IMG/VR virus record: IMGVR_UViG_2731957577_000001 | Location: 134,000-197,999 of that record | Origin: a virus | Lineage: Duplodnaviria; Caudoviricetes | DNA length: 64,000 nucleotides | Direction: 5' to 3' (one strand) | Part shown: positions 2,933-63,747 of the stretch, piece by piece | Position numbering within the stretch: position 1 is the first letter of the stretch | Layout of the letters: each line of letters begins with the position of its first letter | Translations under genes and position numbers: made by a program | The notes under the pieces: generated by a model | Told to the model about the DNA's origin: nothing | The model's input: the letters and a program-made list of their open reading frames with translations, nothing else | Databases searched by the model: none

Positions 2933-3035
2933 ATCCTCCCTCCCGTTATGTGGAAAGTATCGCGGCAAAGCGCGGCAGAAGCAGTTGATCCTGTCGACTC
3001 AATGCCGTGTCTAGATACCGACACACTTCATAGAT

Positions 3036-3440: not shown

Positions 3441-3455
3441 GGGTCCTCTCTCCTC

Positions 3456-3620
3456 TCAGTCCAAGGAATCATAGAATTTTCGAATCATCGAGCCGATGAT
3501 TTTCCATCCGATGTACACCACGAGAGCAAAAATCACGATGGGTGCAAGGAACATCAACACATGAAAGGCAATGTAGAGCACCAGCAAAATCAGGGCAATG
3601 AGACACAGAAATCGAAGCAC
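3456..3620 (-). CDS. Small hydrophobic membrane protein (54 aa, below ORF-track cutoff)
   Basis: GAGGTG SD, GTG start, MLRFLCLIALILLVLYIAFHVLMFLAPIVIFALVVYIGWKIIGSMIRKFYDSLD. Confidence 0.7.
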   Translation of the reverse strand: MLRFLCLIALILLVLYIAFHVLMFLAPIVIFALVVYIGWKIIGSMIRKFYDSLD

Positions 3621-3642
3621 AGGATTCACCTCATATTCTTGA

Positions 3643-15776: not shown

Positions 15777-16409
15777 TCACGATGGCACCTCCACACACTG
15801 TCGATTCATGAGTGGCTCTACACACACCAAAGGAACGGGGCAGGCGGAGACAAACGCATCAAACCGTGCATCCAACCAAGGAGGCGTCCAAGGGGATGAG
15901 CGGCATACAAACACCCGGTCAAAGACCACAGGGACCTTCAATCCATCGTCATACTGCCGATCCATCTTCACGGCAGGCTCTTTATTCTCTGGAATCACTT
16001 CTCTCCACTTTGGGTATCGCATATGGACTTTGGCCAGTGGATAACCAATGAGCCAATCATCACAGTTGAAGAATCCGCGGAAGCAGGCCTCCCACACATC
16101 CCCTTGATAGCCGCCATCATGATGGGCGTCAAAGAGCCAAATCTCATCGACAAGATCCACCCAATCTTCGCGATAGGCATACCGGTTGCTGTCTGCATAG
16201 TAGCCGGAGGCGGCGGGAGAGAACGTAAACCGATCCCAAAACCCAATCTCCATATCCAGAGTATCTGGGAGTCTCCCAAACCACTCCATCAACTCAGGTT
16301 TGCGCTTCTCCCAATAGTCCACCATGAACTCCTTGGTCTCTCGCCGGCCTGTGCTACACCGGGGATCCATGAAGAAGTAGTCCCAGTCAACGACCAATAG
16401 CTTCAACAC
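15777..16409 (-). CDS. UPF0489/arginase-fold-like metal-binding protein
   Basis: VDWDYF, FDAHHD and S.PWTPP motifs. Confidence 0.65.
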   Translation of the reverse strand: MLKLLVVDWDYFFMDPRCSTGRRETKEFMVDYWEKRKPELMEWFGRLPDTLDMEIGFWDRFTFSPAASGYYADSNRYAYREDWVDLVDEIWLFDAHHDGGYQGDVWEACFRGFFNCDDWLIGYPLAKVHMRYPKWREVIPENKEPAVKMDRQYDDGLKVPVVFDRVFVCRSSPWTPPWLDARFDAFVSACPVPLVCVEPLMNRQCVEVPS

Positions 16410-16767
16410 ATTCGCCTCCACAAGGGAACGCCAGATTGACGCCGCGGATCGTGATTCCGTCGTCATTCAACGTGAAGCGGAAGTCTCCGAACAAAGACCG
16501 ATACACATACACATCGTCATCCATGTGCGAAAAACGGAGACTGAATATCGCGTACAAATCGTGTTCATCAGTGCTGCGAACCGAGAACTTAAACGGCCAA
16601 TTGCGAAGCACAGACTGCATCAAATACTCTCGCGCTTCGTCCTGGGACGTGATCACATCACCAAGAACCACAAACTCATCGTTACCCTTCGCTTGAACCT
16701 GAAATAGCATGCGTTTCACCTCAGAAAGAAAGAGGGTAGTATCGATATACGACCGCAATAGCTCCAT
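16387..16767 (-). CDS. Hypothetical protein starting MELLRSYI
   Basis: GAGGTG SD before ATG at 16767. Confidence 0.65.
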   Translation of the reverse strand: MELLRSYIDTTLFLSEVKRMLFQVQAKGNDEFVVLGDVITSQDEAREYLMQSVLRNWPFKFSVRSTDEHDLYAIFSLRFSHMDDDVYVYRSLFGDFRFTLNDDGITIRGVNLAFPCGGECVEAIGR

Positions 16768-16777
16768 GAAATGCACC

Positions 16778-17023
16778 TCATGGACGGCGGGGATAGGCCC
16801 ACACAAAACGGATTTCATCAAGAGGGAAATACATACGTGTATTGTCCTCCACCCGAATCCCGATCTCCCGCCTTGAGAACCAAAACAAATCTCCTCGATA
16901 CCGCCGACCATAATGAACAAATACGATCCGATCTCCTTGTCGTAATCGACACCCGCTAATCTCTATAAAATCGGGCGGGAGAGCCTCTGCCAGATAGGGC
17001 TGAATCAACTCCGTAACCATCAC
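16778..17023 (-). CDS. Small Sm/SH3-like beta-barrel protein (array member)
   Basis: TELIQPYL...GD.I.....Y.G.L.....I.I...FP...I pattern. Confidence 0.65.
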   Translation of the reverse strand: MMVTELIQPYLAEALPPDFIEISGCRLRQGDRIVFVHYGRRYRGDLFWFSRREIGIRVEDNTRMYFPLDEIRFVWAYPRRP

Positions 17024-17025
17024 CC

Positions 17026-17268
17026 CTAATCAATCAACAACCGACCATCCTCACTAACCCACCCAAGGCGGAGGGCGAAGGCAAAAGCCACAGATCCATT
17101 CCCATATAACACCGCGGTACCATCTCGAAAATGCTCCATCATGTCAGGATATACTAACTTGAATAACTCCGTAGGAGACAGGTTCATCACGTCTTTCCGC
17201 TTGTACCCGAGGTAGGTCACCAAGTGCGCGCGGCAACACCGGGCCAGATGCCTCTCCAGTTCCTCCAC
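17026..17268 (-). CDS. Hypothetical protein
   Basis: AGGAGGT SD before GTG; the longer ORF-track start lies in the IS end. Confidence 0.6.
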   Translation of the reverse strand: MEELERHLARCCRAHLVTYLGYKRKDVMNLSPTELFKLVYPDMMEHFRDGTAVLYGNGSVAFAFALRLGWVSEDGRLLID

Positions 17269-17363
17269 AATGCCACCTCCTATCCTGAAGACTAAAGTCT
17301 CTCGATCCACAAAATATAATGGCCTTAAGAATTTAGACACGAAAAAAGGATGTGTTAAGTTGT

Positions 17364-17666
17364 ATGTCAGCGATACGAAGGAACCATCCTCCGGAATTCA
17401 AGGCCAAGGTTGTACTGGAAATTTTGCGAGAAGAAAAATCGATTTCCGAGCTGGCTTCCGAGCATGGGATTCACCCCAATGTCCTTCAGCGGTGGAAAAA
17501 TGATGTCGTTCAAAATCTGGCGCAACTTTTTGTCGATGATCGCAAGGGCATTACGAAAATGAAAAACGAATACGAACAGAAAATCAACCAACTCTATGCG
17601 GAGGTGGGAAAACTTACGACACAGAACGCATGGCTCAAAAAAAAATCTGGCCTCCCGATTGACTAG
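17364..17666 (+). CDS. IS3 transposase OrfA (HTH)
   Basis: EFKAKVVLE...ELASEHGIHPN.L.RWK; ends WLKKK over an A9 slippery run at 17637-17645. Confidence 0.92.
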   Translation: MSAIRRNHPPEFKAKVVLEILREEKSISELASEHGIHPNVLQRWKNDVVQNLAQLFVDDRKGITKMKNEYEQKINQLYAEVGKLTTQNAWLKKKSGLPID

Positions 17667-18522
17667 ACAAGAGCGTTTGGCATTGCTGGATTGGGATTGT
17701 ACCGAACTGCCGCTCAGTCAACAAGCAGAGCTTCTCAGTCTCAATCGATCCAGTTTGTATTACCAGCCAAGACCGCCGTCGCCGGAAGAAGTGGCCATCA
17801 AACATGCCATCGATCGGATCTATACCCAATACCCGATGTTCGGTTCAAGGCGCATCACTGCGATTCTCAGACGGGATGAAGGCTTCCGTGTTCACCGCAG
17901 CACGATTCAGCGTTATATGCAGGAGATGGGAATATCCGCCATCTATCCCGGTCCCAATCTCAGCAAGCGTCATTTGCAACATCGCATTTATCCGTATTTG
18001 CTCCGCGGTCTGGACATCGTCCGACCGAATCAGGTGTGGGGCATTGATCTGACTTACATCCGATTGCAGCGCGGCTGGATGTATCTGGTCGCCGTCCTGG
18101 ATTGGTATTCCCGGTATGTCGTCGCCTGGCAGCTGGATCAGAGCCTGGAGATCGATTTCGTCCTGGAAACGGTGAAAACCGCTTTGGCTGTGAACAAGCC
18201 TGAAATATGGAACAGCGATCAGGGCAGCCATTTTACCAGTCCACAGTACATCGAACTGTTGAAAGCCGAACAAATCCGCATCAGCATGGATGGGAAAGGA
18301 CGGGCTGTGGACAACATTTTCACCGAACGGTTTTGGCGCAGTCTCAAATACGAGGAAGTCTATCTTCACGATTACGCCAATCCGCGAGAAGCTCGAAAAG
18401 GCATTACCCGGTACATCGAACTCTACAATCATTACCGGCCTCATCAATCCTTGAACAATCATACGCCGGCATCGATCTACTGGGGAAACGTGCAACTGCC
18501 CGATCTGGTTATCCACAGGTAA
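17596..18522 (+). CDS. IS3 transposase OrfB (DDE integrase core), expressed by -1 frameshift
   Basis: PNQVW..DLTYI, SDQGSHFT, DN...ERFWRSLKYE. Confidence 0.95.
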   Translation: MRRWENLRHRTHGSKKNLASRLTRQERLALLDWDCTELPLSQQAELLSLNRSSLYYQPRPPSPEEVAIKHAIDRIYTQYPMFGSRRITAILRRDEGFRVHRSTIQRYMQEMGISAIYPGPNLSKRHLQHRIYPYLLRGLDIVRPNQVWGIDLTYIRLQRGWMYLVAVLDWYSRYVVAWQLDQSLEIDFVLETVKTALAVNKPEIWNSDQGSHFTSPQYIELLKAEQIRISMDGKGRAVDNIFTERFWRSLKYEEVYLHDYANPREARKGITRYIELYNHYRPHQSLNNHTPASIYWGNVQLPDLVIHR

Positions 18523-18712
18523 GCCTGAATACAAGGCGGGCTCCCGCGCTTCGCTTGGGCTATGTCCGCCACCAGTGGACAGTCTCACTATCCATCATAT
18601 TCCAATTATGGAATCCGAGAATGGGGGTAAGATAAACAAAACAAAAGACTTTGTGAAAATATTCACCCCTTAATTTTTTTGAAAATCTGTCTTGACAAAT
18701 AGGGCCACCTTA

Positions 18713-18917
18713 AAACGAGGTCGCGGGGAATGCCATATATCCAAGGACGCTCTTTCTGAACCTCAATCTCAAAAAGCTCTTGGTTATACGAGAGCAACTT
18801 CCCCTTTAACACTTTGACCTTCGCATCCCTGATATAGCCGTCTATATACTCAACACGAACCATATCTCCAACCTCAAAGGTGCGCCTGCATTCAAGATAC
18901 TCTTGAACCAACTCCAT
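18713..18917 (-). pseudogene. Sm/SH3-like array gene (MELVQEYLE) whose last codons are displaced by the IS3 to 17292-17314
   Basis: Rejoined flanks read IPRDLVLWIERL*, matching paralogue LPRALLLSIEKL; current reading continues into the IS to 18663. Confidence 0.75.
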
Positions 18918-18954
18918 ACACATTTCTCCTTCACAAATCCCGAAGGGCATTACA

Positions 18955-19203
18955 TCACCAAGGCTTATCCAGCTTCTCTATCGAGAGAAGAAGGGCGCGG
19001 GGAAGGGCATACATGCAATGATACTTATTCCTCACATGAATCGTTTGATCATCATAGTCCACCAACTCACCCCGGCATACGTTCACCTTGGATAAACCCC
19101 GAAACACTTCTATGTACGCTACACGAACCATGTCTCCAACCCTAAAGTACCGGTCACACAGGATACACCCATCCCGTTGAAGATACTCACTGACTAGTTC
19201 CAC
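18955..19203 (-). CDS. Small Sm/SH3-like protein (MELVSEYL)
   Basis: F.VGDMVRV.YI shared with neighbour. Confidence 0.75.
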   Translation of the reverse strand: MELVSEYLQRDGCILCDRYFRVGDMVRVAYIEVFRGLSKVNVCRGELVDYDDQTIHVRNKYHCMYALPRALLLSIEKLDKPW

Positions 19204-19441
19204 ACGTCATCACCTTACTCACAGACACCAAAAGCCTTATCGGAATCCTCCTTGCCGTATCTTTACCCTCCAGCCATATATCCTCCTCATCAAACTCCAC
19301 TAGCTTGCCCCGAAACACACGCTGTTTAATACCGTGCGGGGATAAATCAAAGTACACCACACCCACGGTCTCACCACGCTGAACATAGCAACCATTTAGG
19401 ACAAAGCTCTTGTCCCTTATGTATTCACGAACTAGTTCCAT
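19187..19441 (-). CDS. Small Sm/SH3-like protein (MELVREYI)
   Basis: GE.V.V.Y...RG.LV.FD...I pattern. Confidence 0.75.
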   Translation of the reverse strand: MELVREYIRDKSFVLNGCYVQRGETVGVVYFDLSPHGIKQRVFRGKLVEFDEEDIWLEGKDTARRIPIRLLVSVSKVMTCGTSQ

Positions 19442-19442
19442 A

Positions 19443-19676
19443 TCACCACCCCATATGCACTTCAATATACTCAATGCTCCGGATCGACATCGTAATCCAA
19501 GAGCCACTCCTGGTCTCAATGGCGACTTGTTCCTCTGAAAGCCACACTACACGTCCATCATAGTCGGTGCCACGATAGCGAAGAGATACTACGTCGCCAA
19601 CACATACTTCGATACCACGAATGAGCACGGACTGTGGATTCAATCGACCACTGTATGCTTTGATCAACTCCATCAT
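19443..19676 (-). CDS. Small Sm/SH3-like protein (MMELIKAY)
   Basis: VGD.V...Y.G..Y.G.V.W.S...I. Confidence 0.7.
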   Translation of the reverse strand: MMELIKAYSGRLNPQSVLIRGIEVCVGDVVSLRYRGTDYDGRVVWLSEEQVAIETRSGSWITMSIRSIEYIEVHMGW

Positions 19677-19764
19677 ATAACCCCCAAGGTGGCGCATCCA
19701 TTCTCCAAGATGAGCCGACAGGATTCTTGGGTAAGGAAAGGACGGCGGGGAAGATGAAGCCGCC

Positions 19765-19929
19765 CTAACACCCAATGTACTCTGCAATATAGTCCGTAAT
19801 CACACCCTCATCCTCTGGTTCATATCCATGCCGTTCACAATACCGACGATAATGCAGGCTGTTTCCATCACTTGTCACCCATGCACGTAACTCTTTATCA
19901 TACCAGTACAAAGTCACTGAATTCTGCAT
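19765..19929 (-). CDS. Small hypothetical protein (54 aa, MQNSVTLYWYD...)
   Basis: AAGGAG SD; followed by a GC hairpin. Confidence 0.55.
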   Translation of the reverse strand: MQNSVTLYWYDKELRAWVTSDGNSLHYRRYCERHGYEPEDEGVITDYIAEYIGC

Positions 19930-20115
19930 AAACAACACTCCTTTCCGAGCTTCATGAACAAGTCACAGCACATTCATCACAAATCGCTCTCCTAAATCAG
20001 CCGATAGGCTTGAAGGGCATTACACAACCAGAAACACAGTATACCCTAACTTACCACCACTTTGAACATCCCGTAGGGGACATGAAACACCATACACATG
20101 ACACATGGATGACCA

Positions 20116-20290
20116 TTAGATGAACCTTGTATGACTGAAAAGAAACTTGTGAGATATGTCCTTGAAACACCGAAAAGACCCTCGTGTAATATGCTCTTGA
20201 AACAACCAAAAGACCATTTCGAGATATGCACTTGAAACCTCGAAAAGCCCCTTTTTGTGTGGGCTTGAAACACCAAAAAGACCCTGCCAA
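20116..20290. repeat. Five ~35-bp direct repeats (core CTTGAAACACCNAAAAGACC)
   Basis: Cores at 20126, 20161, 20196, 20231, 20264 in non-coding DNA. Confidence 0.8.
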
Positions 20291-20520
20291 ACCCCGCACG
20301 AGGCACCGCCAAGGACCTGCACACGATAATGCCGGATTACCACAAGTTGATGATGTATCGGCTTGCATCGAGTCATGGACATGGGGCACAGAGAGAGAAG
20401 CAGAGAGGGGAGGATGGGAGTGTGCATGTGGGGTAGGGGAGAGACATGCGTACATCCGCATCCCGGAGGGTTGGGACAGGGGCTGCATCGTTCCAGCCCC
20501 CATCCCGGTCTGCGTGATGC

Positions 20521-23500
20521 TTACTCGTAGACACAGAAGCCCACAATGGCAAACTTCACAGTATGCTTGCCATTGAACTCGGCTTCCTCGACGTCGGCCA
20601 CAAAGGCCTTGTGTCCGCTGAAGAAGGGATAGGCAGAGGCATAGAGACGGCCAACCTTGAGACCATTGAAATAGACAAAGGCTACAAGGTTGCCGGTGAG
20701 TTTCTCTTCTTCATAGCGGATGCCGATGATGCCACCATTCTTGAGGGCGGCTTCGACTTTCTCACCAGAGATGCCACGCAACACACTCATGGAGACGTTG
20801 AAGTGGCTTGGCGCGACTGCCTCAATGGTGTTCGGTGTCTTGGTACCAGAGACGACCATGCAAGCCGCCAACAGTTGACGCTTGGCCGCCACCCACGGGA
20901 AGGCATGGGCTTCACTCTTGGATTCGGCATAGGTCATGTGATAGGCGACATAGCCAATCTCTTCAGGAGCAAAACCAGCTTCGAGAGCGGCGATGGCTCG
21001 TTGAGCCTTCTCGACGATGGCACCGATCTTGTTCTTGCGTTCTTCCTCGATGCGATTCTTGCCGGTCACATAGAGCGGCGATTTATCGTCTCCATCGACC
21101 GCAGCCAGCAGGTTCTCGAGTTGCTTCTCGGAATACTCGAACGCCTGGGAGATCGCATAGCCATATTCCCGCTTGATCGGCGCGATATGCTTCTTCAACG
21201 CCTCGAAGCGCGCGGGATCCATGACGATGCAGGAGCTGAGTTCACCAAGGATGTTACAGCTCATGTCCTCCTTGTTCATGGACTCGACCACATCGAGGAT
21301 GTTGGCCTCGAGATAGTCCTGAACATGCTTGCGGACCTGAGACAACACACTTCCAGTGAAGCGCCCTTCACGACCACGACGAGCGGCCATCCAGTCTGGA
21401 TTGAACCAGACGCGACGACCGAGTTTCTCGTTCCACACCGAGACAAACTCAGGTGGATTGCCGATGAAGGACAGCTCATCCTTCAGATGCTCTTCATACG
21501 CGCCACCATGCTTCGGACGGTCAATCTCCCAACCTTGGCACAGACGCAGGAGTTCGATCCAACGTTCATACCGCTCGATCTCCGCCAGCAGGTCTTCCTT
21601 ATTGCCGACGCCCATCGCCACCATATAGCCAAGGCGGCGGACGGCATCGGCCAAACGAGTCGCATAGTTCGTCAGCTGGCCGATCTTATTCGGCACGAGC
21701 TTGCGAACCACCCAAGCCTTGGACATGTCATGAATGGCCTGAATCAGTTCATGACCATACAACGTATCCTCGAACTTGAGTGTCCAACCATCCTGCTCCA
21801 CGTCATCAAAGGCAATGGCCTGAGCTTCGCCCCAATCCATCGCCCACGGGCAACCTTCGACCCACTCATAGTTGCCATCCTCCAGACGGCGGAAGGATTT
21901 ATCGAGGATGGCGGGATAGGACTTCTTCTTCAGAACCTCGACGATCTCCGCCTGTGTCGTCGCCAGAGTGGTATCACCATCATTATCGGCGCCACCCTGC
22001 TGAACAGTGGCAAAGTCATGGACACTCATGACACACAGGTTCTCAAAGCCACCCTTGGCCGCGGCACGCACATAGTTCTGCGGCGCCACGCATTTAACCA
22101 GAGCGGCTTCACCCTTGGCAATCGCGGGATTACGCATAAGCGCCACTTCCCGAGTCTCAATGCTGCGGCTGTCGTCGGACACCATGAAGACGGTGTTCGG
22201 ACGCAGACCGATGTGTTCCGGCACGATGACTTCGCCTTCTGGGCAGAGCCGGTGCGCTTCCAGAATCGCATACGGATCTTGCACCATCCAGCGATAGTGA
22301 CCTTCGACCGGAATCATGCCCTTGGTCCACATGTCCGCGATGTTCATCAGGATGTCCCGAGCGTACTTCTTCATCTGCAAGTCTTTCAGGGTGAAAGGCG
22401 CTGCAAACAAGAAGTGGGTGAAGGTCGATACCAGTGTCTTGTTCAGCACCTCTTCGGCTTCTTCGTCCTCCAGGCTCAGGATCTCCTCTTGAGACGGAAG
22501 TCCGACATACTCAGAGATCAACTCGGGATCATGCAGCATGTCGACCAGACGATCCAGATGCCGTGTGACAATCTTCTTCGCCGTCTCCGCGCCCATGCTC
22601 ATGATGTGCATGAACTGATACGGAAGCAGCGTGAACTTCTTGCAGTTACGCGCCTGCTTGTTGAACAAGGCAATGCGCAGGGTGATGGTATGCTTCATCA
22701 GGTCGATATTGCGATAATCGCCCTTGACAGCGCCCTCCATCGCCACAATGTCTTCCTCGAAATACTTCTCAAGGCCTGGGACATAGACCATCAGACCCTT
22801 GGTGAAGGGAGTAATGCGAATCTGGAACGCCGAGCTGCGGACATCAAATTCCTTGCAGAGCGTCTTCCAGACCCGAGCATTGCAGAACACCAGGCCATCA
22901 CCCACCGCAAACTTCTGCGGGAACTTCGCGGCATCAAAGACCTCGAACTGCTTGGTCTCCATGTTGAAGGCCTTGAACTTTCCGGTCTTCACAATGGCAT
23001 GGGCCTGACGCGCCACACGCATGGTAAACTTGCCGCCGACGATGGAATACTCACCATTGGCATGCTCCACAATCTCCGTGCCAAACGTAATCGCCCGGCT
23101 CGGGATGGTGTTGGTGGACGCCAAGCCAAAGCGCTTCATGCCCTTGGTGATGTCCAGCACCCATTTGCCGTCCTTCTTCTTGGCAAAGGCGCGGAAGTCC
23201 ATGCCGATTGCCTCAAAGACTTTCGGCACCGACAGATCGACCAGGAACACACCTTGCAGCGTGCGGTCCTGAGATGGAGAGGCCATGAAATACTCAGCCT
23301 TGTGAACCCTGTTGCCACCCTTGATGAAGAAGCCGTTGTGAACGACATGTTCACGCATCGCTTCGCTCTCCGGCTCCATGTTCTTGAGGTTCAGGTTCAC
23401 ATAGCATAGAACCGGAAGCACACGCACACCATTGACCTCGACGACCTTGTGAAGCAGAGCGTCCGTCAAAGCGCTCTGATTCTGACGCTGATACCCTGAG

Positions 23501-23688
23501 CGTGGATCCTCATCGACCAAGACGCGGGGATCCGCATAGTTGAGCGTGGAGACATAGCCATTGAGTTCTGCATCCCAAACCATTGCATTGACGTCGGCGC
23601 GAAGGACGGTGATGCCATAACGCTTCTTGCTGCTCTTCATGATGATCTCCTCCTGGATGTGGTTGTTGATGAGGGTGGTGTGGTTCAT
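20521..23688 (-). CDS. Single-subunit two-barrel RNA polymerase of the cellular RdRP family (SPbeta YonO-like)
   Basis: SPSQ.R, R.GLA.TNT, GDG, SAFQIR...KG, RNP.I..GE and catalytic GGADNDGD motifs in RdRP order; start ambiguous (23640, 23688 or ~23757). Confidence 0.85.
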   Translation of the reverse strand: MNHTTLINNHIQEEIIMKSSKKRYGITVLRADVNAMVWDAELNGYVSTLNYADPRVLVDEDPRSGYQRQNQSALTDALLHKVVEVNGVRVLPVLCYVNLNLKNMEPESEAMREHVVHNGFFIKGGNRVHKAEYFMASPSQDRTLQGVFLVDLSVPKVFEAIGMDFRAFAKKKDGKWVLDITKGMKRFGLASTNTIPSRAITFGTEIVEHANGEYSIVGGKFTMRVARQAHAIVKTGKFKAFNMETKQFEVFDAAKFPQKFAVGDGLVFCNARVWKTLCKEFDVRSSAFQIRITPFTKGLMVYVPGLEKYFEEDIVAMEGAVKGDYRNIDLMKHTITLRIALFNKQARNCKKFTLLPYQFMHIMSMGAETAKKIVTRHLDRLVDMLHDPELISEYVGLPSQEEILSLEDEEAEEVLNKTLVSTFTHFLFAAPFTLKDLQMKKYARDILMNIADMWTKGMIPVEGHYRWMVQDPYAILEAHRLCPEGEVIVPEHIGLRPNTVFMVSDDSRSIETREVALMRNPAIAKGEAALVKCVAPQNYVRAAAKGGFENLCVMSVHDFATVQQGGADNDGDTTLATTQAEIVEVLKKKSYPAILDKSFRRLEDGNYEWVEGCPWAMDWGEAQAIAFDDVEQDGWTLKFEDTLYGHELIQAIHDMSKAWVVRKLVPNKIGQLTNYATRLADAVRRLGYMVAMGVGNKEDLLAEIERYERWIELLRLCQGWEIDRPKHGGAYEEHLKDELSFIGNPPEFVSVWNEKLGRRVWFNPDWMAARRGREGRFTGSVLSQVRKHVQDYLEANILDVVESMNKEDMSCNILGELSSCIVMDPARFEALKKHIAPIKREYGYAISQAFEYSEKQLENLLAAVDGDDKSPLYVTGKNRIEEERKNKIGAIVEKAQRAIAALEAGFAPEEIGYVAYHMTYAESKSEAHAFPWVAAKRQLLAACMVVSGTKTPNTIEAVAPSHFNVSMSVLRGISGEKVEAALKNGGIIGIRYEEEKLTGNLVAFVYFNGLKVGRLYASAYPFFSGHKAFVADVEEAEFNGKHTVKFAIVGFCVYE

Positions 23689-23756
23689 GAACATTTCCTC
23701 CTTGGAATTCATAAGATTCTGATATTGATAGGCATTGAAAGGCACTTCATGATTCA

Positions 23757-24182
23757 TCACAGATCCAGCTCCTTGTTCTCGTATTTGTCGACCCATTCCC
23801 AGTAGAGGTCGAATGCAGACTCCACACTGGCTTTGTCGATGAGTTTGACCAAGGTGTGTTGGAGGCCATATCGCCCTTTGAAGGAGAATGAAATGCCAAA
23901 CACAATGACGGGCTGCGGAAACACCTCATGGCGATTGCGCCACCTTGCCCCAACCGCGATACTATAGACGCCAAGCACATCGACTTGGCCCAAGAAGAAC
24001 GTATGGTCCTTCTTGTCAAAGGCGGTGGTGAAGTCGACGGGAACCCCATAGAGATACCCATCGGCTCCATAGAGTCGGTCCTCCACTTGCGTGGAGACGC
24101 GGAAGTCGCGTCCGAAGACCTGCTCAAAGTGCAAAATGAGCATGTCCTCGATCCGTTGACCATAGCTTTGACGAATCCACAT
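23757..24182 (-). CDS. Putative PD-(D/E)XK nuclease-fold protein
   Basis: G..IE helix, then ED...GAD......VDFT; AAGGAGG SD; coupled to the polymerase gene. Confidence 0.55.
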   Translation of the reverse strand: MWIRQSYGQRIEDMLILHFEQVFGRDFRVSTQVEDRLYGADGYLYGVPVDFTTAFDKKDHTFFLGQVDVLGVYSIAVGARWRNRHEVFPQPVIVFGISFSFKGRYGLQHTLVKLIDKASVESAFDLYWEWVDKYENKELDL

Positions 24183-24211
24183 AGGGAACTCCTCCTTCGA
24201 GCGTTTTTGAG

Positions 24212-24528
24212 AAAAAAGAAAAAGCCTCATGTAGGGACAATGACGAACTCATCCCTACAAAAGGCGGGGAATCAAGAATTCTCTCCATGCTTGGATAGGG
24301 TTTCTATCGTGCGACAAGCATGGCGTCTTTGTCCTTGTACCCTGTGTGCTATGGACAAAGACACAGCATCACACACAGGGAGCGTGTGGTGTTTCACGGA
24401 TCGAATGCAGCCACGCTTCCTGCATTCGACCGGACCACGGCATCCTCTGAATCACCTGTCGTCATCACAGGACTGCAGATCCAGAGAACCCATGATCATC
24501 TGCTCGTCTGAGCCAATCAGACGAACAG
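24212..24528 (-). ncRNA. Candidate structured RNA/leader: six stems, two pseudoknots, terminal intrinsic terminator
   Basis: Perfect 9-10-bp stems, loop complementarities, G-U wobbles that favour the minus strand. Confidence 0.6.
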
Positions 24529-25041
24529 CGTCAGCACAATGAACTCCACAGCTTGCCAAGCGATGAAGAAGGGCCAGAACAATCCCATCGTCGCCAGGAT
24601 CACGAGACCCGCAAACCACAAGCTGCCATACGAAAGACCATCTAAGAGATTGCCAAATGTCAATTGGCGACCTAATAGATAACGCTTAATCAACCAAATC
24701 AATGCGGTGACAAAGAACACCACAGCAAATCCCGTCAACAAGGCACCCGTGATGGTGGAGCAACCCCAACTCGCCAGAACCGCAGCACTCGCCACGGTCA
24801 CATGGCTGGTGTGCTTGCGAATCATCGCCTCCAACTTCCGAGCTCCAGCCTGGATCTTCTCCCACACCTTGCCGCCAATCGTCTTAAAGAAGCATTTTGC
24901 TTTGTCCACAAAGCCCATCTTCTCTTCCTCCTTCTTCTCTTCGTTCACAATCTCTGCATCAATCACCAACGACGTCTTTGTGTCCTTCGCCTCAGCACCC
25001 ACACGACCAAACCCACCAAACAACAGCTCATGCAACGTCAT
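24517..25041 (-). CDS. Multi-pass membrane protein
   Basis: AAGGAGG SD; 3-4 hydrophobic segments. Confidence 0.75.
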   Translation of the reverse strand: MTLHELLFGGFGRVGAEAKDTKTSLVIDAEIVNEEKKEEEKMGFVDKAKCFFKTIGGKVWEKIQAGARKLEAMIRKHTSHVTVASAAVLASWGCSTITGALLTGFAVVFFVTALIWLIKRYLLGRQLTFGNLLDGLSYGSLWFAGLVILATMGLFWPFFIAWQAVEFIVLTLFV

Positions 25042-25146
25042 GACAACATTCCTCCTTGCGTACCATGCTCGCCAGCAGATTGGTTTTGGTGTACCGAGTA
25101 CACCATGAGACCCACCTCATCAGAGGTGAGTCCGAGCTGTACTCGG

Positions 25147-25359
25147 TCAGGACGCCAAGTGCGCATACATCTTGTATCCCTTCAGCGTCAGGTTCACGGC
25201 AAAGCCCTCTTGCTTCGTGTGCCAAACATGAACAATGCCCTCGTCTTCGAGGGCACGGAAGTTTTCCAAGTGTAGTCCATACGGCACCAGCGTCTTCACC
25301 AGCACAAACTTGTTTTGGCGACGTGCATCTACGAGAATCCTTGCGAGGCTTTCCGACAT
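25147..25359 (-). CDS. Putative winged-helix protein, paralogue of 11389..11670
   Basis: AGGAGG SD; LA.ILV.A...N..V...L..YGL.L...LED.G.V...T..GY..Y. Confidence 0.7.
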   Translation of the reverse strand: MSESLARILVDARRQNKFVLVKTLVPYGLHLENFRALEDEGIVHVWHTKQEGFAVNLTLKGYKMYAHLAS

Positions 25360-25720
25360 GAAGTTCACCCTCCTGCAGATGTTTTTGGGCATGAAAAGGG
25401 GGTGGGGCATCGAACGCCGCCACCCACATGCCAACAATTCAACCTATCACCCCGCGCAATTTTTTATATTTTGTGGCCCCTATATGGCGTTTCCTTTTCC
25501 TGTAAACTATGGAGGGAGAGAAAAAGGGAGAGGGGAAGAGAGGAAATCGGTGCAGTGTACAATAAAGGTGTTCTATGAATTACCCCACCGGGGACAAGCC
25601 CATATGACTGGCTATGACCCCTGGCCGTGGCCACGCGCAGTCAGGTATCGTTTTATGTTCTGAGGCGTCTTGGCCAAAAATTTTTTTATACTACCTGTAG
25701 GTCTCTATAGCGAAATTTCG

Positions 25721-25748
25721 TATAATGGGAATGATGAAAGGCATTACA
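25721..25748 (+). promoter_or_regulatory. -10 box TATAAT followed by operator TGAAAGGCATTACA
   Basis: Start of the plus-strand gene block; motif repeated through the window. Confidence 0.7.
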
Positions 25749-25764
25749 GAGGGGAGAGGGGATC

Positions 25765-26346
25765 ATGCTGCTCTTTATCGACACAGAAACCGGAGGACTG
25801 AATCCAGACAAACATTCCTTGTTGCAAGTTGCGATGCAACTGTATGACGGAGAGAACGAGCATGAACCGTTCACCCTCTTTATCAAGCATGAGGAGTATG
25901 TCGTGACAGAAGAAGCCATGCGGATCAATGGTCTCAGCCTTAGCGACATCAACAAGTACGGCTTCACGCCAACGGAAGCTGTCAGTCAAATCCTGTCCTG
26001 GATACGGGAAATGGACCTGATGAAAGAGAAACCGACCCTGGCCGGGCACAACATCCATTTTGACCGAAGGTTCTTGCAGAAGTTGTTTCGGGACGGTAGT
26101 TGTGACCTTGATAATTTCTTCAGCTATCGAACGCTTGATACAGCCTCGGTGATTCGGTTTCTGAAGGATGCCGAGATCCTCCCAGCGGACTTTCCGGATG
26201 GGTTGCACGACGCCGCGAAGGCGCTTGGGATCCGTGTCGTGGATGCACACACCGCGATCGGAGATGTCCGTGTGAACATCCAGCTCTATAAGCGACTGAA
26301 ACAACTCGTGAGAGGAGAATTCCAATGGGAAGAGTGCTTGCCATGA
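25765..26346 (+). CDS. DEDDh 3'-5' exonuclease (DnaQ-like)
   Basis: IDTETGGL, AGHN..FD, LDT, H.A..D. Confidence 0.92.
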   Translation: MLLFIDTETGGLNPDKHSLLQVAMQLYDGENEHEPFTLFIKHEEYVVTEEAMRINGLSLSDINKYGFTPTEAVSQILSWIREMDLMKEKPTLAGHNIHFDRRFLQKLFRDGSCDLDNFFSYRTLDTASVIRFLKDAEILPADFPDGLHDAAKALGIRVVDAHTAIGDVRVNIQLYKRLKQLVRGEFQWEECLP

Positions 26347-26942
26347 GCGACATTCATGGACAATACATTCCGTTCCAACAGGTTCTCTATGACGCAAAGT
26401 ATGACCCGAAGGAAGATACTTTGATTCTCTGTGGAGACTATTGTGACCGCGGTCCGCAGACGAAACAGGTGATCGAAGAAGTGATGAGTCTGGTGGCCAA
26501 AGGCGCCGTGGCCCTAAAGGGCAATCACGACGACTGGATGATCCGCTACGCTCTGCGAGAGATGGAGATAGACGAGGAAAGCTCATGGCTGGAGCAGGGT
26601 GGGAGAGAGACCCTCGAATCCTATGAAGATGAGATGGACGATTTATATTGGCATGCCCGATGGATGGACTCGAATCTCAAGCTCTACCACGAAACCGACC
26701 AATTCATCTTCGCGCATGCCGGCGTCTTGCCGGGTGTTTCCCTGGAGTCCCAACCGCCGTGGGCGCTGCTTTGGCGACGCTACCAGGGACCTTGCCAATT
26801 GGGGAAACTCGTGGTTCATGGCCACACGCCCGTGAAAGAAGTCACTCAGGTCTTTGACCAACTGTTTATTGATACCGGCTCGGTATTCGGCGGAAAATTG
26901 AGCCTCGTCGACCTCACCAATGGAATTGTCTATGCGGCATAG
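26325..26942 (+). CDS. Calcineurin-like metallophosphoesterase (phage Ser/Thr phosphatase-like)
   Basis: SDIHG, GDYCDRG, GNHD, HAG, HGHTP, IDTG. Confidence 0.93.
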   Translation: MGRVLAMSDIHGQYIPFQQVLYDAKYDPKEDTLILCGDYCDRGPQTKQVIEEVMSLVAKGAVALKGNHDDWMIRYALREMEIDEESSWLEQGGRETLESYEDEMDDLYWHARWMDSNLKLYHETDQFIFAHAGVLPGVSLESQPPWALLWRRYQGPCQLGKLVVHGHTPVKEVTQVFDQLFIDTGSVFGGKLSLVDLTNGIVYAA

Positions 26943-26996
26943 ATCTATCGTGTTATACTGGTCATGAAGTGCATTACACATAGGGCGGGGATAATC

Positions 26997-27224
26997 ATGA
27001 GATTCTTGCCAGATGAAGCCGAGATCATCTTGAACTACATTCGGGAGGCCGGCTTCATGAAGTTTCAAAAGAAGAAGGATGCCGAGGAGATTGTGAAACT
27101 CGGCAAGCAGGAAGGACTGACGCTCCGCAAATTGCATGCGCGTGGCGGGTACTACGTGTATGTGCCGGGGCAAGGGCCGTGGGATCAGTTCAAACTCGGA
27201 CCGATTCCGGTCATGGAGAAGTAG
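26997..27224 (+). CDS. Hypothetical protein
   Basis: Downstream of TGnTATACT and an operator at 26965-26978. Confidence 0.6.
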   Translation: MRFLPDEAEIILNYIREAGFMKFQKKKDAEEIVKLGKQEGLTLRKLHARGGYYVYVPGQGPWDQFKLGPIPVMEK

Positions 27225-27239
27225 TCAGGGGCGATTGAT

Positions 27240-27446
27240 ATGGAACTGGTCGAGCAATACCTAGAGTCTGTACAAAAGGTGCAAGGTCTGTATGTGCTCA
27301 GTCTCGATATTGAGGATGTTGCAACCGCACATCACATCGCAGAGCAGATTCGTGAACGCTGGAAACAGATGACCAGTGAGCCGTTGCTGGTGTTGCCCAA
27401 GGGTGCGAAGCTGGAATACTTGGAGTTAACCTCGACCGCTGGGTAG
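27240..27446 (+). CDS. Hypothetical protein starting MELVEQYL
   Basis: In operon; shared N-terminal motif. Confidence 0.65.
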   Translation: MELVEQYLESVQKVQGLYVLSLDIEDVATAHHIAEQIRERWKQMTSEPLLVLPKGAKLEYLELTSTAG

Positions 27447-27509
27447 GCATGGATCACCGTCAGGAATCTCCGGGAAGCGCATGAACGCATAGTGAGGGGA
27501 GAGGTTGAC

Positions 27510-27680
27510 ATGAGGGACGCTTGGATTCAGACGCTGTTTGACGCCGATCTGCGCACGGTCCATCCGGGATTTCGAGAACATATCGAGGACATCACCATTT
27601 ACGATCTACTCTGTCAGTACGCACTGGACAGCAAACCCGATGTGGTGGTGAAGTTCGTTGATGATGACGTGTACCACTGA
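27510..27680 (+). CDS. Hypothetical protein
   Basis: GAGGT SD. Confidence 0.5.
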   Translation: MRDAWIQTLFDADLRTVHPGFREHIEDITIYDLLCQYALDSKPDVVVKFVDDDVYH

Positions 27681-27858
27681 GCCGACGCTTCGCGTCGGGG
27701 ATCGGGTGGAAGATGGACGCCATGCCAAGCGCGTCGGCATAGTGATGAAACTCACCCCGGATGGACAGCGCGCGCTGGTGAAGTGGGAGCCGTATCGGAT
27801 TGCGACCACGTATTATGCGGTCCGAAATTTGAGGAGGGTTGGACATGCAAGCTACTGA
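27658..27858 (+). CDS. Small SH3-like protein
   Basis: LRVGDRV....VGIV....LVKW....Y...NL. Confidence 0.6.
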   Translation: MMMTCTTEPTLRVGDRVEDGRHAKRVGIVMKLTPDGQRALVKWEPYRIATTYYAVRNLRRVGHASY

Positions 27859-28240
27859 CCAAATGACGGTGTTTGTACGGGTGCAGGCAGATGGACCGAC
27901 GGATGTTCGATACGCCTTGATCCACAAACTCGAACAGCTGATTGACTCATTGGAGTGCGCGGAAGGATATGTGTCCGGAGGCGCGATCAATGACGACTCT
28001 GGTTTCTTGGAGTATGACATTCGTTCCGTCCCGAGACTCCAAGTTGGGATGAAGGTCAAACATCGAAAACATGATTATGGGGTTGGAGAGATCACGATGG
28101 TCTCAAAGTCAGGGAGACGTTTTTATGTCCGGTGGTCACGGACCGATTACCTATTATCGGCATGGTATGAGGCGACCAATCTGGAGGTTGTCGATGAACG
28201 GAGTGGGATGGATGAAACGGCTGAAGCTGTTCTTTCATGA
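27845..28240 (+). CDS. Hypothetical protein with C-terminal SH3-like domain
   Basis: GAGGAGG SD; LQVGMKVKH...YGVGEI...VRW....Y..NL. Confidence 0.65.
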   Translation: MQATDQMTVFVRVQADGPTDVRYALIHKLEQLIDSLECAEGYVSGGAINDDSGFLEYDIRSVPRLQVGMKVKHRKHDYGVGEITMVSKSGRRFYVRWSRTDYLLSAWYEATNLEVVDERSGMDETAEAVLS

Positions 28241-28373
28241 ACTCATGGTCCGCTTCTATAGCTGGCGATTGGAAGACGACAACGACATGTTCACCCATTA
28301 TGAACTCCTGCGAAAGCACGACCATCACTTGTTACAGGCACTAAAGATCAGCAAGGAGCTTGAGGCCAAGTGA
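28212..28373 (+). CDS. Small hypothetical protein
   Basis: GTGA overlap with the next gene. Confidence 0.45.
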   Translation: MKRLKLFFHELMVRFYSWRLEDDNDMFTHYELLRKHDHHLLQALKISKELEAK

Positions 28374-28636
28374 CGCAGAACATCCCGCAGGCATGCGAAC
28401 TGTTCCAGCACTTTAAAGGCGGACTTTATACCGTCGTGGGTGTCGGCAAGCACTCAGAGACACAAGAAGATATGGTTGCGTATGTAGACGAAAACGGAGA
28501 TCTGTGGTTCCGGCCGCTCTCGATGTGGAACGACCTCGTAGAGAAAGATGGAGAGCGCGTGCCGAGATTCAAAAGTTTGGGGATGCTCCATGGAATTATT
28601 GCAGCTTTATCTGACGCAAGTGAATCTGGGAGTTGA
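28370..28636 (+). CDS. DUF1653 family protein
   Basis: HFKGGLY.V...HSET.E.MV.Y....W.RP..M. Confidence 0.88.
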   Translation: MTQNIPQACELFQHFKGGLYTVVGVGKHSETQEDMVAYVDENGDLWFRPLSMWNDLVEKDGERVPRFKSLGMLHGIIAALSDASESGS

Positions 28637-29210
28637 ACCGGCTCCCGAAAGTCATGCTCGCACACTCAGTCCCTTTGACTGGGACCCGGTTTTGTCGGCG
28701 CCTGGGCCGATTGTGACGGTGTTGGCCGAACGTCGAACCGGAAAGACAACGGCGGCGGTACGACGTGCGATCTTATCACCATACGATACGCTCATCGTCG
28801 GTCCTCGGTATGAAACGGTGCGCTATATAGCCCAGGTATTGGCTGAACAGTTGGATGAGATGGGAATCAACGCGGCGATCCAACGAACCCACGCTGGAAA
28901 TACGATCTTTATCTTGGATATGGGGCGGCAACCGGACAAACAAATTCGTGTCGCACCAATTGGGGACCGATCGGCCATGTGGTCCCTGTATGAAGAAATC
29001 ATCTTTGATGATGCCAGTTGGTATGACTCTCGGATTCCTATGGACTACATTCAGCAAAGCGTGGGCGACAGGACATTTGTCATCATGGGGTCGTTTGAAC
29101 GCGATTTTGTGCCATATCCCGCAGAACAAGGCGAAAACTTCAGGGCGTTAGTGGCCCAAGCCAATCAACACTTCCAGATGTTCTACAACGATCTTGAACC
29201 CGCTTTGTAA
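28590..29210 (+). CDS. Stand-alone terminase-like P-loop ATPase domain (starts MELLQLYL)
   Basis: Walker A AERRTGKT, Walker B-like IIFDDA. Confidence 0.65.
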   Translation: MELLQLYLTQVNLGVEPAPESHARTLSPFDWDPVLSAPGPIVTVLAERRTGKTTAAVRRAILSPYDTLIVGPRYETVRYIAQVLAEQLDEMGINAAIQRTHAGNTIFILDMGRQPDKQIRVAPIGDRSAMWSLYEEIIFDDASWYDSRIPMDYIQQSVGDRTFVIMGSFERDFVPYPAEQGENFRALVAQANQHFQMFYNDLEPAL

Positions 29211-32773: not shown

Positions 32774-33964
32774 ATGTCAAAGACTGCTGCAAAAGCCGCA
32801 TCCACGCCAAAGGCAACGACTGTTCCGTATCTGGTGGCTCCGGACATTGGATTCGGCGTGGTGAAGGTGTTGTCGAGCGCACCGAACGTACGTGATTCCT
32901 CCATTGTGATGCCGGCCACTGCGGCACCAGGCGTCCAGTCCACCAGCCGGTTGTTTAACCTCAATCACATCGACCGCAAGAAGCTAATTGTGACCACGAG
33001 CGAAGGCACCTATTTCGTCGGGGAGAACGCAAATACGAAGACCGAAGGGCGCTCGAATCGTACGCAGGAGAGCGACCGCGCCAACGACCCCATCAGCCGT
33101 ATCCTGTTTAAGACCGGCATTGCGCTTGGTGTTCCCGATGAGGAAGGCGAGTATGATGTCTTTGTCGTCACGGGTCTGCCCAATCGTGACTATGACAGTG
33201 TGGTCAAAGAGAATCTTGAGAAGTTCCTCAGCGAGCCTTACGAGATTACCTTCCATCTGGGTGGGAAGGACATCACCAAGAAGATCAATTTCGTGGGCTG
33301 TGTGATCCTGCGCCAGCCGGAAGGCTCAATTCTCAACAATACATTTTCGTTTACACCAGACTACAAAGAAACCGGATCCCTGTTGGCCTACAATCCGAGC
33401 ATCAAGGAGTTTGTCGGCATCATTGATATTGGTCATTTCACCACGGACTATGCCCTATTCCAGGATGGATTCTTGGTGCCCAGTGATAAGACCTGCGGCT
33501 CCTCGGAGGCGGCCCATCTCGTATATAGCCGCTTACGTGTCGAACTGATGTCGAAGTTCCGGAACGAGTATGGTATGCGGTATGAGCCGACCGACAAGGA
33601 TTTGGACCGCGCCGTTCGCCAGAGGAAAGTCCAGTTCAATGGTGTGGATCATGACGTGACTGCGGAAGTCGATGCTTGTGTCCAGGAAGTGGCGGCGACC
33701 ATCGCGAAGGACGTCTTTGAGGCATGGGGGCCCGAAGCGACCCGTCTCGATCAGATTCTCTTGACGGGCGGTGGCGCGCATCTGTTTGAGGAAGCGCTGG
33801 CGAATGAGTTTGCGGCCCGCAAGATCCAGCCCTTTACCATTATTCCGAACCCGCAATTTGGGAACACTGTTGGGTATTATATGTTTGGCGCGATGGAATT
33901 GGCGGGACGGTACGACATCGATCAGGTCTATCAAGAGGTTGTGGCGCACCTCTTTGCGGACTGA
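32774..33964 (+). CDS. ParM/StbA-family actin-like ATPase
   Basis: DIGFG.VK, VTGLP, QPEG, IIDIG.FTTD, LTGGGA, PQF.N..GY. Confidence 0.9.
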   Translation: MSKTAAKAASTPKATTVPYLVAPDIGFGVVKVLSSAPNVRDSSIVMPATAAPGVQSTSRLFNLNHIDRKKLIVTTSEGTYFVGENANTKTEGRSNRTQESDRANDPISRILFKTGIALGVPDEEGEYDVFVVTGLPNRDYDSVVKENLEKFLSEPYEITFHLGGKDITKKINFVGCVILRQPEGSILNNTFSFTPDYKETGSLLAYNPSIKEFVGIIDIGHFTTDYALFQDGFLVPSDKTCGSSEAAHLVYSRLRVELMSKFRNEYGMRYEPTDKDLDRAVRQRKVQFNGVDHDVTAEVDACVQEVAATIAKDVFEAWGPEATRLDQILLTGGGAHLFEEALANEFAARKIQPFTIIPNPQFGNTVGYYMFGAMELAGRYDIDQVYQEVVAHLFAD

Positions 33965-37953: not shown

Positions 37954-39717
37954 ATGTCAGCAGTTATGGACAACAGGTCGCTCGCTGATTTGGAGATTGA
38001 AGTTCGTTCTGACCCAGTCAAATGGGCCTATTGGAAACTGAAAGATCCCAAGGGGAATCCGTGGAGGGCCCGATGGTATCAGAAGAAAATTATTGATGGC
38101 ATCATGAAAGGCGACCGGCGGATCGCAGTCCGCATGGGCAGGCGTGTAGGGAAGACGGAGACCCTGGTTGTTTTCTGTTTGTGGTACGCTTTTCATCACA
38201 GGAATGCACGTCTTCTCATAGCTGCGCCGTATGAAAACCAGGTTCGCCTGATTTTCATGCGTCTGAACGAGATGATCGACGACTGTGATGAGCTTCGGGA
38301 ATCCATCCGGACTCGAACCAAGAACCCGTTCATTATTCAATTCAACAACGGAAGCAGCATCATGGGCTTTACAGTAGGGGCAACTTCCGGTCAATCGGGT
38401 GCGTCTGTCCGCGGTCAACGTGCAGATTGGATCTTCCTTGACGAGATTGACTACATGGACCGCGACGGCATTGATGCGGTTACGGCCGTTGCACTGGAAG
38501 ATCCGGCGCGCATCGGGATCTGGTGCAGCTCGACACCTACCGGTAAGCGAAGTTTCTTCTATGAGATTTGTACGAACCCGGATACTGGGTACAAGGCATA
38601 TCACTTTCCATCTATGGTGAACCCTGATTGGGATGAACGGATGGAGGCCCAAATGCGGGCCACGATGACGGAACAAAGCTACATCCACGAGGTATTGGCC
38701 GAGTTCGGAGAAGAGACGGTCGGAGTTTTCGCCAAATCGGCGGTAGAACGAGCAAAGTCGCAATTCCTGTATAGCTATCGGGAACTGAATGCATACGAGC
38801 GGGAACAGTACGAGAGACAGGGCTTCAAGATGGATGAAATTATCTACTATGGCCCGTATACTGTAAGCAAACCCGCTCCCCCTGCGATTCGCATTATCGG
38901 GGTGGACTGGGATAAATACGCCAATGATACGCAGATCATTGTGACGGAGTTTGATGAGTTCCTGAAGAAGTTTCGGGTTGCCTTTCGGGCGGAGATTCCA
39001 AGAGGGGAATTCACGCTCGACAATGCGGTCAAAAAAATTATCGAACTCAACGCAATTTATGATCCTCGTCTGATCTACATAGACCGAGGGTTTGGTGAGT
39101 ATCAGATTGAGACACTTCGCTTGTATGGCCGGGAGCATCCTGAGACAGGCCTCGATCGAAAGATCCGGCCAGTGCATTTTGGACAAAAGATTGAAGTTCG
39201 GGATCCTGCAACACGAGAAGTGGACATGAAGGATGTAAAGCCATTCATGGTAAACCAGACGGCGCTCTTGCTTGAACGTGACAAGATTGTGCTGTCTCCC
39301 TTTGACGATATGGTCTGGAAGCAGATGATGGACTATCAGGTCGTCAAGATCACGCAGAACGGCCGGCCGGTGTACACCTCCGAAAACGAACATGCGCTCG
39401 ATGCCTTTATGCTCACCATTCTCGGCTTTACGCTTGAGTTTCCGGACATCACACAGATTCTTGAAGAAGTGAAGGTCGCCCGGACCAACAAGTTCATTCA
39501 CGGCAAATCCATCGTGGAGAAAGTCACTGAGAAGGTCTTTGGTGGCACGCGCGATGTGTACAAGCCTAGGGATACACGAGAGTTTGAGCCCAAGGACGAT
39601 CCGAACTGGCGCCTGCGGAAAGTGCCGCTTGGATATGCCAAGCCGCGCGGCGGGCAATGGGGAATGAGAGGGACTTCGAGATATTCACGATCGCCGTTTG
39701 CCAGAAGGTCAATCTAA
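37954..39717 (+). CDS. Terminase large subunit
   Basis: YQ adenine motif, GRRVGKT, FLDE, STP.G, nuclease IGVDW...IYID.G...EHALDA. Confidence 0.93.
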   Translation: MSAVMDNRSLADLEIEVRSDPVKWAYWKLKDPKGNPWRARWYQKKIIDGIMKGDRRIAVRMGRRVGKTETLVVFCLWYAFHHRNARLLIAAPYENQVRLIFMRLNEMIDDCDELRESIRTRTKNPFIIQFNNGSSIMGFTVGATSGQSGASVRGQRADWIFLDEIDYMDRDGIDAVTAVALEDPARIGIWCSSTPTGKRSFFYEICTNPDTGYKAYHFPSMVNPDWDERMEAQMRATMTEQSYIHEVLAEFGEETVGVFAKSAVERAKSQFLYSYRELNAYEREQYERQGFKMDEIIYYGPYTVSKPAPPAIRIIGVDWDKYANDTQIIVTEFDEFLKKFRVAFRAEIPRGEFTLDNAVKKIIELNAIYDPRLIYIDRGFGEYQIETLRLYGREHPETGLDRKIRPVHFGQKIEVRDPATREVDMKDVKPFMVNQTALLLERDKIVLSPFDDMVWKQMMDYQVVKITQNGRPVYTSENEHALDAFMLTILGFTLEFPDITQILEEVKVARTNKFIHGKSIVEKVTEKVFGGTRDVYKPRDTREFEPKDDPNWRLRKVPLGYAKPRGGQWGMRGTSRYSRSPFARRSI

Positions 39718-63697: not shown

Positions 63698-63747
63698 CCA
63701 ATGATATAATCATCCATGAAATGCATTACACAGGAGGGAAAGTGACG

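Follow-up and report, generated by a model that had tools for sequence, protein, structure and literature searches.

We analyzed a 64,000-nucleotide stretch of viral DNA (here called the window; IMG/VR record IMGVR_UViG_2731957577_000001, positions 134,000 to 197,999), which belongs to contig C7, a ~198-kb jumbo myophage or phage-plasmid. Eight genes in this window encode proteins that begin with the same short peptide, with the core motif M-E-L-h-x-x-Y. This N-terminal tag is a modular, protein-level label carried on unrelated protein bodies, and it is specific to one clade of ~190- to 230-kb jumbo myophages or phage-plasmids of Bacillota-type hosts. No description of an M-E-L-h-x-x-Y tag was found in the literature searched, and it looks like an apparently undescribed address or processing label. 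On balance, we favor the view that the tag is read in trans by a common cytoplasmic partner, for which an intracellular subtilisin-like protease encoded by the same phage is the best, albeit tentative, candidate.

An N-terminal tag on unrelated phage proteins

All eight N-termini reported in the initial annotation of the window were confirmed (Table 1), seven of them as exact matches and one (MMVTELIQPYL, at 17023) as a decayed variant. The annotation implied that the motif would be more frequent in the phage than in its host, and this proved correct: when all six frames of the 3.63-Mb assembly were scanned for [start codon]-E-L-[VIL]-x-x-Y-[LIVMS] at the head of open reading frames (ORFs) of at least 40 amino acids (aa), there were 15 matches on C7 and 2 in the other 3.4 Mb. 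The latter two follow GTG/TTG codons and resemble in-frame codons within longer ORFs. The C7 tags outside the window comprise seven at C7 73145-84037 and one at 107688. Among the ~251 called C7 genes, 14 N-terminal matches were observed versus 0.015 expected from composition (~1,000-fold), while internal matches (9 observed versus 3.6 expected) were near background; the motif is thus specific to the N terminus. In an unbiased count of N-terminal residue triplets in three related genomes, only the MEL-type motif was enriched. Approximately 1/16 of the genes of the ~198-kb phage are tagged, and the corresponding proportion across the clade is 5 to 9%.

The true start codons lie at the tags, as assumed in the initial annotation. 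A purine-rich Shine-Dalgarno-like stretch is located 6 to 13 nt upstream of each tag start (e.g., AAGGTGA upstream of the gene at 18955-19203), and the starts are tight against the preceding gene. A crude gene caller chose the tag start unprompted in 12 cases, and orthologs in other phages start at the same residue. The constraint acts on the protein, also as originally proposed. Position 3 is encoded by any of the six Leu codons, and both Glu codons and both Tyr codons occur; this synonymous variation indicates that selection acts on the peptide. An mRNA or translation-initiation signal is ruled out by the same variation and by the persistence of the tag across GC contents, the sequenced relative loci ranging from 33% to 53% GC.

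The core motif was defined from 123 distinct tags of the wider clade, in which position 4 is occupied by I, V, L, A, or M. Variation is seen at positions 5 and 6, with Ala and Glu favored at position 6 and Pro tolerated there at approximately its background frequency. Position 8, which had been counted as part of the motif, does not belong to it: Leu or Ile occurs in ~60% of the tags and anything else in the rest. A tag-like start (MSDELVLRYQQTGD) is also present in a sigma-70-like factor encoded at L001:17777-18532 (C7 77777-78532). We rejected this protein as a carrier; its motif is offset by two residues and resembles an ordinary sigma N-terminal region.

The bodies that follow the tag had been described as unrelated, and this description stands in part. 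Three of the window carriers (16387-16767, 27240-27446, and 28590-29210) show no similarity to the small beta-barrel carriers or to one another, but the five SH3-like carriers are paralogs, comprising four tandem genes at 18663-19673 and the gene at 16778-17023 (blastp E values of 4e-13 to 1.6e-4; alignment A6). Tag sharing among these five therefore partly reflects common descent. In Foldseek, the model of the 18663-18917 protein weakly matched bL19, Tudor, LSm, and Hfq barrels, and the 19187-19441 protein gave a weak match to the C-terminal SH3 domain of RimP. The gene at 16387-16767 has a counterpart in the same position in relative C (C_50924; see below), with a product that is similar by eye.

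The tagged P-loop protein encoded at 28590-29210 had been called a terminase-like ATPase. Its fold bears this out, the best Foldseek match being the ATPase domain of the P74-26 large terminase (E = 4e-6), but it is not the terminase of this phage, because the true large terminase is encoded at 37966-39717. A word-index search with the ATPase found only itself. Its public gene call (P0001; 196 aa) begins 10 codons late and misses the tag, such that the tag serves to correct gene starts; several database relatives of this ATPase likewise have over-long or truncated start calls. A DUF1653 gene (window positions 28370-28636, plus strand) shares 47 nt with the beginning of the tagged ATPase gene.

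Other carrier types in the clade include Zn-ribbon proteins, helical proteins, a tail-anchored membrane protein, and a protein with a Tad2-like domain. The last of these (L033:15353-15793) is the relative B ortholog of the 27240-27446 gene and has a C-terminal PF11195 Tad2-like (Thoeris anti-defense 2) domain (E = 1e-6). Some orthologs carry such a domain, while the window copy does not. A Pfam search with 30 tagged proteins yielded only this Tad2-like match and subthreshold noise.

Distribution and conservation of the tag

Relatives of the phage (hereafter, phage A) were found via the RNA polymerase, the capsid protein, and the protease, and their tags were counted with a DNA pattern, for which a reversed control pattern gave 0 to 1 matches. 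The relatives, with genomes of ~190 to 230 kb, contain ~5 to 24 tagged genes each. Relative B (228,841 bp) has 17 tags, or 24 if Ala or Thr is allowed at position 4; relative C (206,290 bp) has 10; and four further complete relatives (191 to 216 kb) have 11, 18, 7, and 12. Relative D, a 194,705-bp element of Oceanobacillus profundus DSM 18246, contains MELVSEYL twice and MDLATAYL, and its ATPase ortholog is untagged. In a tree of the terminase, portal, capsid, and sheath proteins rooted on Moorella phage MTATph1, the topology was ((A,B),(C,D)), with 100% support for C and D, so relative D is nested among tag-rich phages. The tag is absent from MTATph1 and from Bacillus phage 0305phi8-36, which are the nearest isolated phages according to the sheath. 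In MTATph1, no other enriched N-terminal motif was detected among 188 called genes, and no orthologs of the tagged families were detected by tblastn over 150 of 176 kb.

Within orthologous families, the tag is as conserved as Walker A and catalytic residues. In the ATPase family (alignment A2; ~22% identity), M1, E2, L3, and Y7 are invariant, together with G51, K52, and T53 of the Walker A motif and a few other residues. In the family of the 27240-27446 protein (alignment A3), the invariant columns are M1, E2, Y7, Y18, W41, and L49. A profile search of 1.84 billion representatives recovered 79 representatives of the ATPase family (clusters at 50% identity), 32 of which start with the tag at residue 1 and four more of which carry it behind an over-long start call. 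The tag is absent from distant members, indicating that it was added to a pre-existing family and then held.

The tag lies outside both folds modeled with AlphaFold2. In the barrel encoded at 18663-18917 (predicted local distance difference test [pLDDT] score of 75), residues 1 to 9 have a pLDDT of <50 and are predicted to be unstructured and unpacked, preceding a body of five strands. In the ATPase, a weak helix is predicted for residues 2 to 11, followed by a low-confidence segment (residues 12 to 28). Such a conserved yet apparently unstructured segment would be typical of a linear motif that is read by a partner. We rejected the possibility that the tag is the N-terminal helix of an Sm/Hfq-type barrel, since residues 1 to 9 of the barrel model are without secondary structure and the tag also occurs on nonbarrel folds.

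These results also bear on the possibility that the tag is functionless, i.e., a relic of common descent in a fast-evolving family, an ordinary structural N terminus, or a translation-initiation optimum. As noted above, paralogy is demonstrable for five of the eight window carriers, and many carriers are clustered orphans that could stem from duplication. However, the tag is also found on P-loop ATPase, Zn-ribbon, helical, and membrane proteins; it is invariant among orthologs that have otherwise diverged to ~22% identity, it lies outside the predicted folds, and it is missing from distant ATPases. The synonymous codon variation and the persistence from 33% to 53% GC argue in the same way against a signal at the mRNA level. 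We consider a functionless tag to be highly improbable. The proposal of a modular N-terminal label on unrelated bodies is instead upheld by the three dissimilar window carriers, the invariance of the tag in orthologs, and its position outside the folds.

Candidate readers of the tag

If the tag is read in trans by one cytoplasmic partner, as we are modestly inclined to believe, the most suitable candidate is the intracellular subtilisin-like serine protease (subtilase) of the phage, although we propose this identification with considerable caution. The D53/H86/S239 triad and the oxyanion Asn are intact in 11 orthologs, and the enzyme has neither a signal peptide nor an I9 prodomain. The solved structures most closely related to it are those of Savinase, Carlsberg, BPN', and intracellular serine proteases. 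The subtilase is encoded in all eight tag-rich complete genomes, within 10 kb of two to eight tagged genes, and is 52 to 62% identical across every tag-rich relative (the partial contigs G008 and G010, which do not cover the protease region, are uninformative with regard to co-occurrence). In six genomes, the tagged gene for the tail-anchored membrane protein is located directly upstream of the subtilase gene. In relative D, in which the subtilase is absent according to tblastn, two to three tags are left.

Natural subtilisins contact residues P1 to P5 of their substrates and have a strong preference for hydrophobic residues at S1 and S4 (PMC7935941), and bacterial intracellular subtilisins have their own N-terminal LIPY/F peptide bound such that it spans the active site (PMC6220982). 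The tag agrees with the P1/P4 rule when Tyr7 is taken as P1 and the I/V/L/A/M residue at position 4 as P4, in a segment of low pLDDT. The tolerance of Pro at position 6, right before Tyr7, also fits subtilisin behavior. In this model, the tag would be extended in the subtilase cleft, such that S1 accommodates Tyr7 and S4 accommodates the aliphatic residue 4, with the variable residue 5 at the solvent-facing P3 position. It may be clipped after Tyr7 or serve as a handle, in the manner of the LIPY/F pro-peptide of intracellular subtilisins. The outcome would be a single switch over ~5 to 9% of the phage proteins, in which the subtilase, by clipping or holding the tag, might activate, relocate, or retire the whole set at once; the targets would include counter-defense effectors, the ATPase, and the membrane-anchored neighbor of the subtilase itself. 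We regard such a proteome-wide proteolytic switch as conceivable but doubtful.

Several observations weigh against this assignment. The connection of the tag to the subtilase depends on a single loss event (relative D), and the subtilase is one of five genes that are kept in A, B, and C and absent from D (tblastn), such that four other genes have the same presence/absence profile. In MTATph1, the protease gene occupies the same syntenic position, but there are no tags; in relative D, two perfect MELVSEYL tags persist despite the absence of the protease. The invariant Met1, Glu2, and Leu3 are unaccounted for by the known subtilisin subsites, and no covariation of the S4/S1-pocket residues of the protease orthologs with tag position 4 was detected. 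Moreover, the YonO-like RNA polymerase family fits the origin of the tag equally well.

The polymerase represents an alternative type of partner. The tag would in this case form a helix that docks onto another hub of phage or host origin, such as the YonO-like RNA polymerase, which would recruit small regulators or effectors without cleavage. Every tag-bearing complete genome searched encodes a member of the polymerase family, which is absent from the tag-free MTATph1 and G011, and in A, B, C, and L025 tandem tagged arrays follow directly downstream of the polymerase gene (a polymerase-then-array arrangement is also seen in L005 and L027). Judging from the motif, a helix would present L3, residue 4, and Y7 on the same face, and a helix is predicted at residues 2 to 11 of the ATPase. 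However, relative D keeps the polymerase and has lost the array and most tags, residues 1 to 9 of the barrel model are without a helix, and Pro is not depleted at position 6 relative to its approximate background. Furthermore, we know of no precedent for 16 to 24 different partners on one polymerase. Docking to a polymerase or similar hub consequently appears to be quite unlikely.

A third possibility is that the tag targets its carriers to the capsid or virion in the manner of the capsid-targeting sequence (CTS) of phage T4, with the cargo docking on the scaffold, portal, or prohead core and being packaged and injected with the DNA. The architecture is that of the T4 internal proteins, i.e., a short common N-terminal peptide on diverse, fast-evolving, small proteins, some of which are encoded in tandem arrays. 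In addition, one carrier family includes a Tad2-like anti-defense fusion, and injection would benefit counter-defense cargo; two carriers head an operon running into the structural genes. On the other hand, one conserved carrier is a tail-anchored membrane protein, the carriers are mostly acidic (median isoelectric points of 5.2 to 5.5 in phages A and B), and most of their genes lie among those for replication, nucleotide metabolism, and RNA polymerase. The tag lacks sequence similarity to the T4 CTS and is not followed by a consistent cleavage motif, a T4-type [ILV]-x-E site (positions 4 to 6) being present in 12 of 40 tags. The homologous major capsid protein (MCP) and sheath are also present in relative D, MTATph1, and 0305phi8-36, yet these genomes have two to three, zero, and zero tags, respectively. 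Virion targeting is therefore unlikely, and T4-type capsid loading is disfavored as the general role of the tag.

Two further functions raised in the initial annotation were not supported. One of these was a degron. A Leu/N-degron that is exposed after cleavage and recognized by ClpS was rejected, because ClpS (PF02617) was not found in G000 or six relatives (control genomes were matched by the same search) and because residue 8 is variable in the wider clade. The other was a signal for conjugation of a ubiquitin-like protein. Relative B, with the most tags (24), has no E1, E2, or ubiquitin-like genes according to tblastn, while relative D has these genes and two to three tags. In the window, a ubiquitin-like conjugation cluster is located at positions 2084-4323 on the minus strand, with genes for a ThiF-type E1 (2084-2932), a protein with a weak Prok_Ub match (3036-3440), and a Prok-E2_D protein (3643-4323). 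This cluster is also present in relatives C and D and absent from B.

Genomic setting and comparison with known systems

Contig C7 (197,999 bp) was binned with a bacterial genome (G000) that is 99.7% complete. Its GC content is 52.4%, compared with 59.2% for the remaining assembly, and it had no blastn match to any other contig of the assembly. A single gene spans the contig ends (window positions 63600-64000 join C7 position 1, with a 9-nt overlap), and its orthologs are full length in relatives B and D. Thus, C7 is complete, either circular or circularly permuted, at ~198 kb. This circularity, together with the terminase, portal, MCP, and sheath genes, the ParM/Alp7A gene, and the YonO-type polymerase gene, identifies C7 as a jumbo myophage or phage-plasmid. 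The ParM/Alp7A protein, which is encoded directly upstream of the packaging genes, hints at plasmid-like carriage. An IS3-family insertion sequence interrupts the tagged-gene operon; it is no part of the tag system, and no second copy was found in the assembly.

Table 1. Features of the window and of contig C7 that are referred to in the text (window positions unless stated otherwise)
Feature	Position	Strand	Tag or remarks
Window	G000:C7:134000-197999		Part of contig C7
Tagged gene, 126 aa	16387-16767	-	MELLRSYI; body without a Pfam family
Gene with decayed tag, 81 aa	16778-17023	-	MMVTELIQPYL; small beta-barrel paralog; blastp to 19443-19673, 24% identity, E = 1.6e-4
IS3-family insertion sequence	17352-18522	+	orfA (HTH_Tnp_1) and orfB (rve); within tagged-gene operon, opposite strand
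Tagged gene, 84 aa	18663-18917	-	MELVQEYL; SH3-like five-strand barrel (AlphaFold2 model)
Tagged gene, 82 aa	18955-19203	-	MELVSEYL; GTG start; barrel paralog, 43% identity to 18663-18917, E = 4e-13
Tagged gene, 84 aa	19187-19441	-	MELVREYI; barrel paralog, 33% identity to 18955-19203, E = 2e-7
Tagged gene, 76 aa	19443-19673	-	(M)MELIKAYS; barrel paralog (blastp and alignment A6)
YonO/RdRP-type single-subunit RNA polymerase	20521-23796	-	PF05183, E = 1e-12
Tagged gene, 68 aa	27240-27446	+	MELVEQYL; small alpha/beta protein; tag kept in orthologs of relatives
Tagged gene, 206 aa	28590-29210	+	MELLQLYL; stand-alone terminase-ATPase-like P-loop protein
Actin-like ParM/Alp7A segregation protein	32774-33964	+	ALP_N, MreB-like_C
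Large terminase	37966-39717		
Portal	41486-43687		
Prohead protease/scaffold-like protein	43712-45073		
Major capsid protein	46439-47521		
Tail sheath	58778-61576		
Intracellular subtilisin-like serine protease, 302 aa	C7 75657-76565 (L001:15657-16565)		Outside the window; PF00082 (Peptidase_S8), E = 3e-59

To our knowledge, shared N-terminal tags on diverse phage cargo are essentially represented by one well-studied case, the T4 CTS. That sequence became a tool for packaging foreign proteins. The tag described here is a different, seven-residue peptide that marks 5 to 9% of the genes throughout a clade of ~200-kb phages or phage-plasmids with Gram-positive-type hosts and that is retained while the bodies diverge to <50% identity. 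It provides one handle on dozens of orphan genes, for which the reader would define a functional class, probably host-takeover or counter-defense effectors, and it might be put to use as a transferable label by which proteins are delivered, processed, or controlled in time.

The combination of a conserved module at the N terminus with variable cargo is also found in the leaders of polymorphic effectors, such as MuF-fused phage toxins and double-glycine bacteriocin leaders. Those modules are whole domains or leaders of 15 to 30 residues with dedicated export or packaging machinery, whereas the present motif has 7 residues and no transporter was identified.

With regard to the subtilase as a candidate reader, the closest parallel is the LIPY/F pro-peptide of intracellular subtilisins, which is likewise a short N-terminal peptide with Leu-Ile and an aromatic residue and which lies across the subtilisin cleft (PMC6220982). 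The phage protease is similar to these enzymes in being a cytoplasmic subtilisin. However, many other proteins would provide the peptide in trans, as opposed to the protease doing so in cis; the spacing of the peptide is L-I-x-x-Y instead of L-I-P-Y, and the N-terminal extension of the phage protease is without an LIPY motif.

The tag most closely resembles the T4 CTS of internal proteins (PMC3012670) and the N-terminal packaging signal of P1 DarB (PMC9024508) in its general organization. In each case, a short peptide at the extreme N terminus is the sole conserved part of diverse, rapidly evolving accessory proteins with unrelated bodies, and several of the carriers of these signals act against host defense (PMC3012670, PMC9024508). 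The T4 CTS differs in having the consensus MKTYQEFIAE and a closing prohead-protease site (L/I-x-E), in contrast to M-E-L-h-x-x-Y without a consistent site. The present tag is placed on 5 to 9% of the genes, including those for an ATPase and a tail-anchored membrane protein, and its distribution tracks the cytoplasmic subtilase and the YonO-like RNA polymerase rather than the head module.

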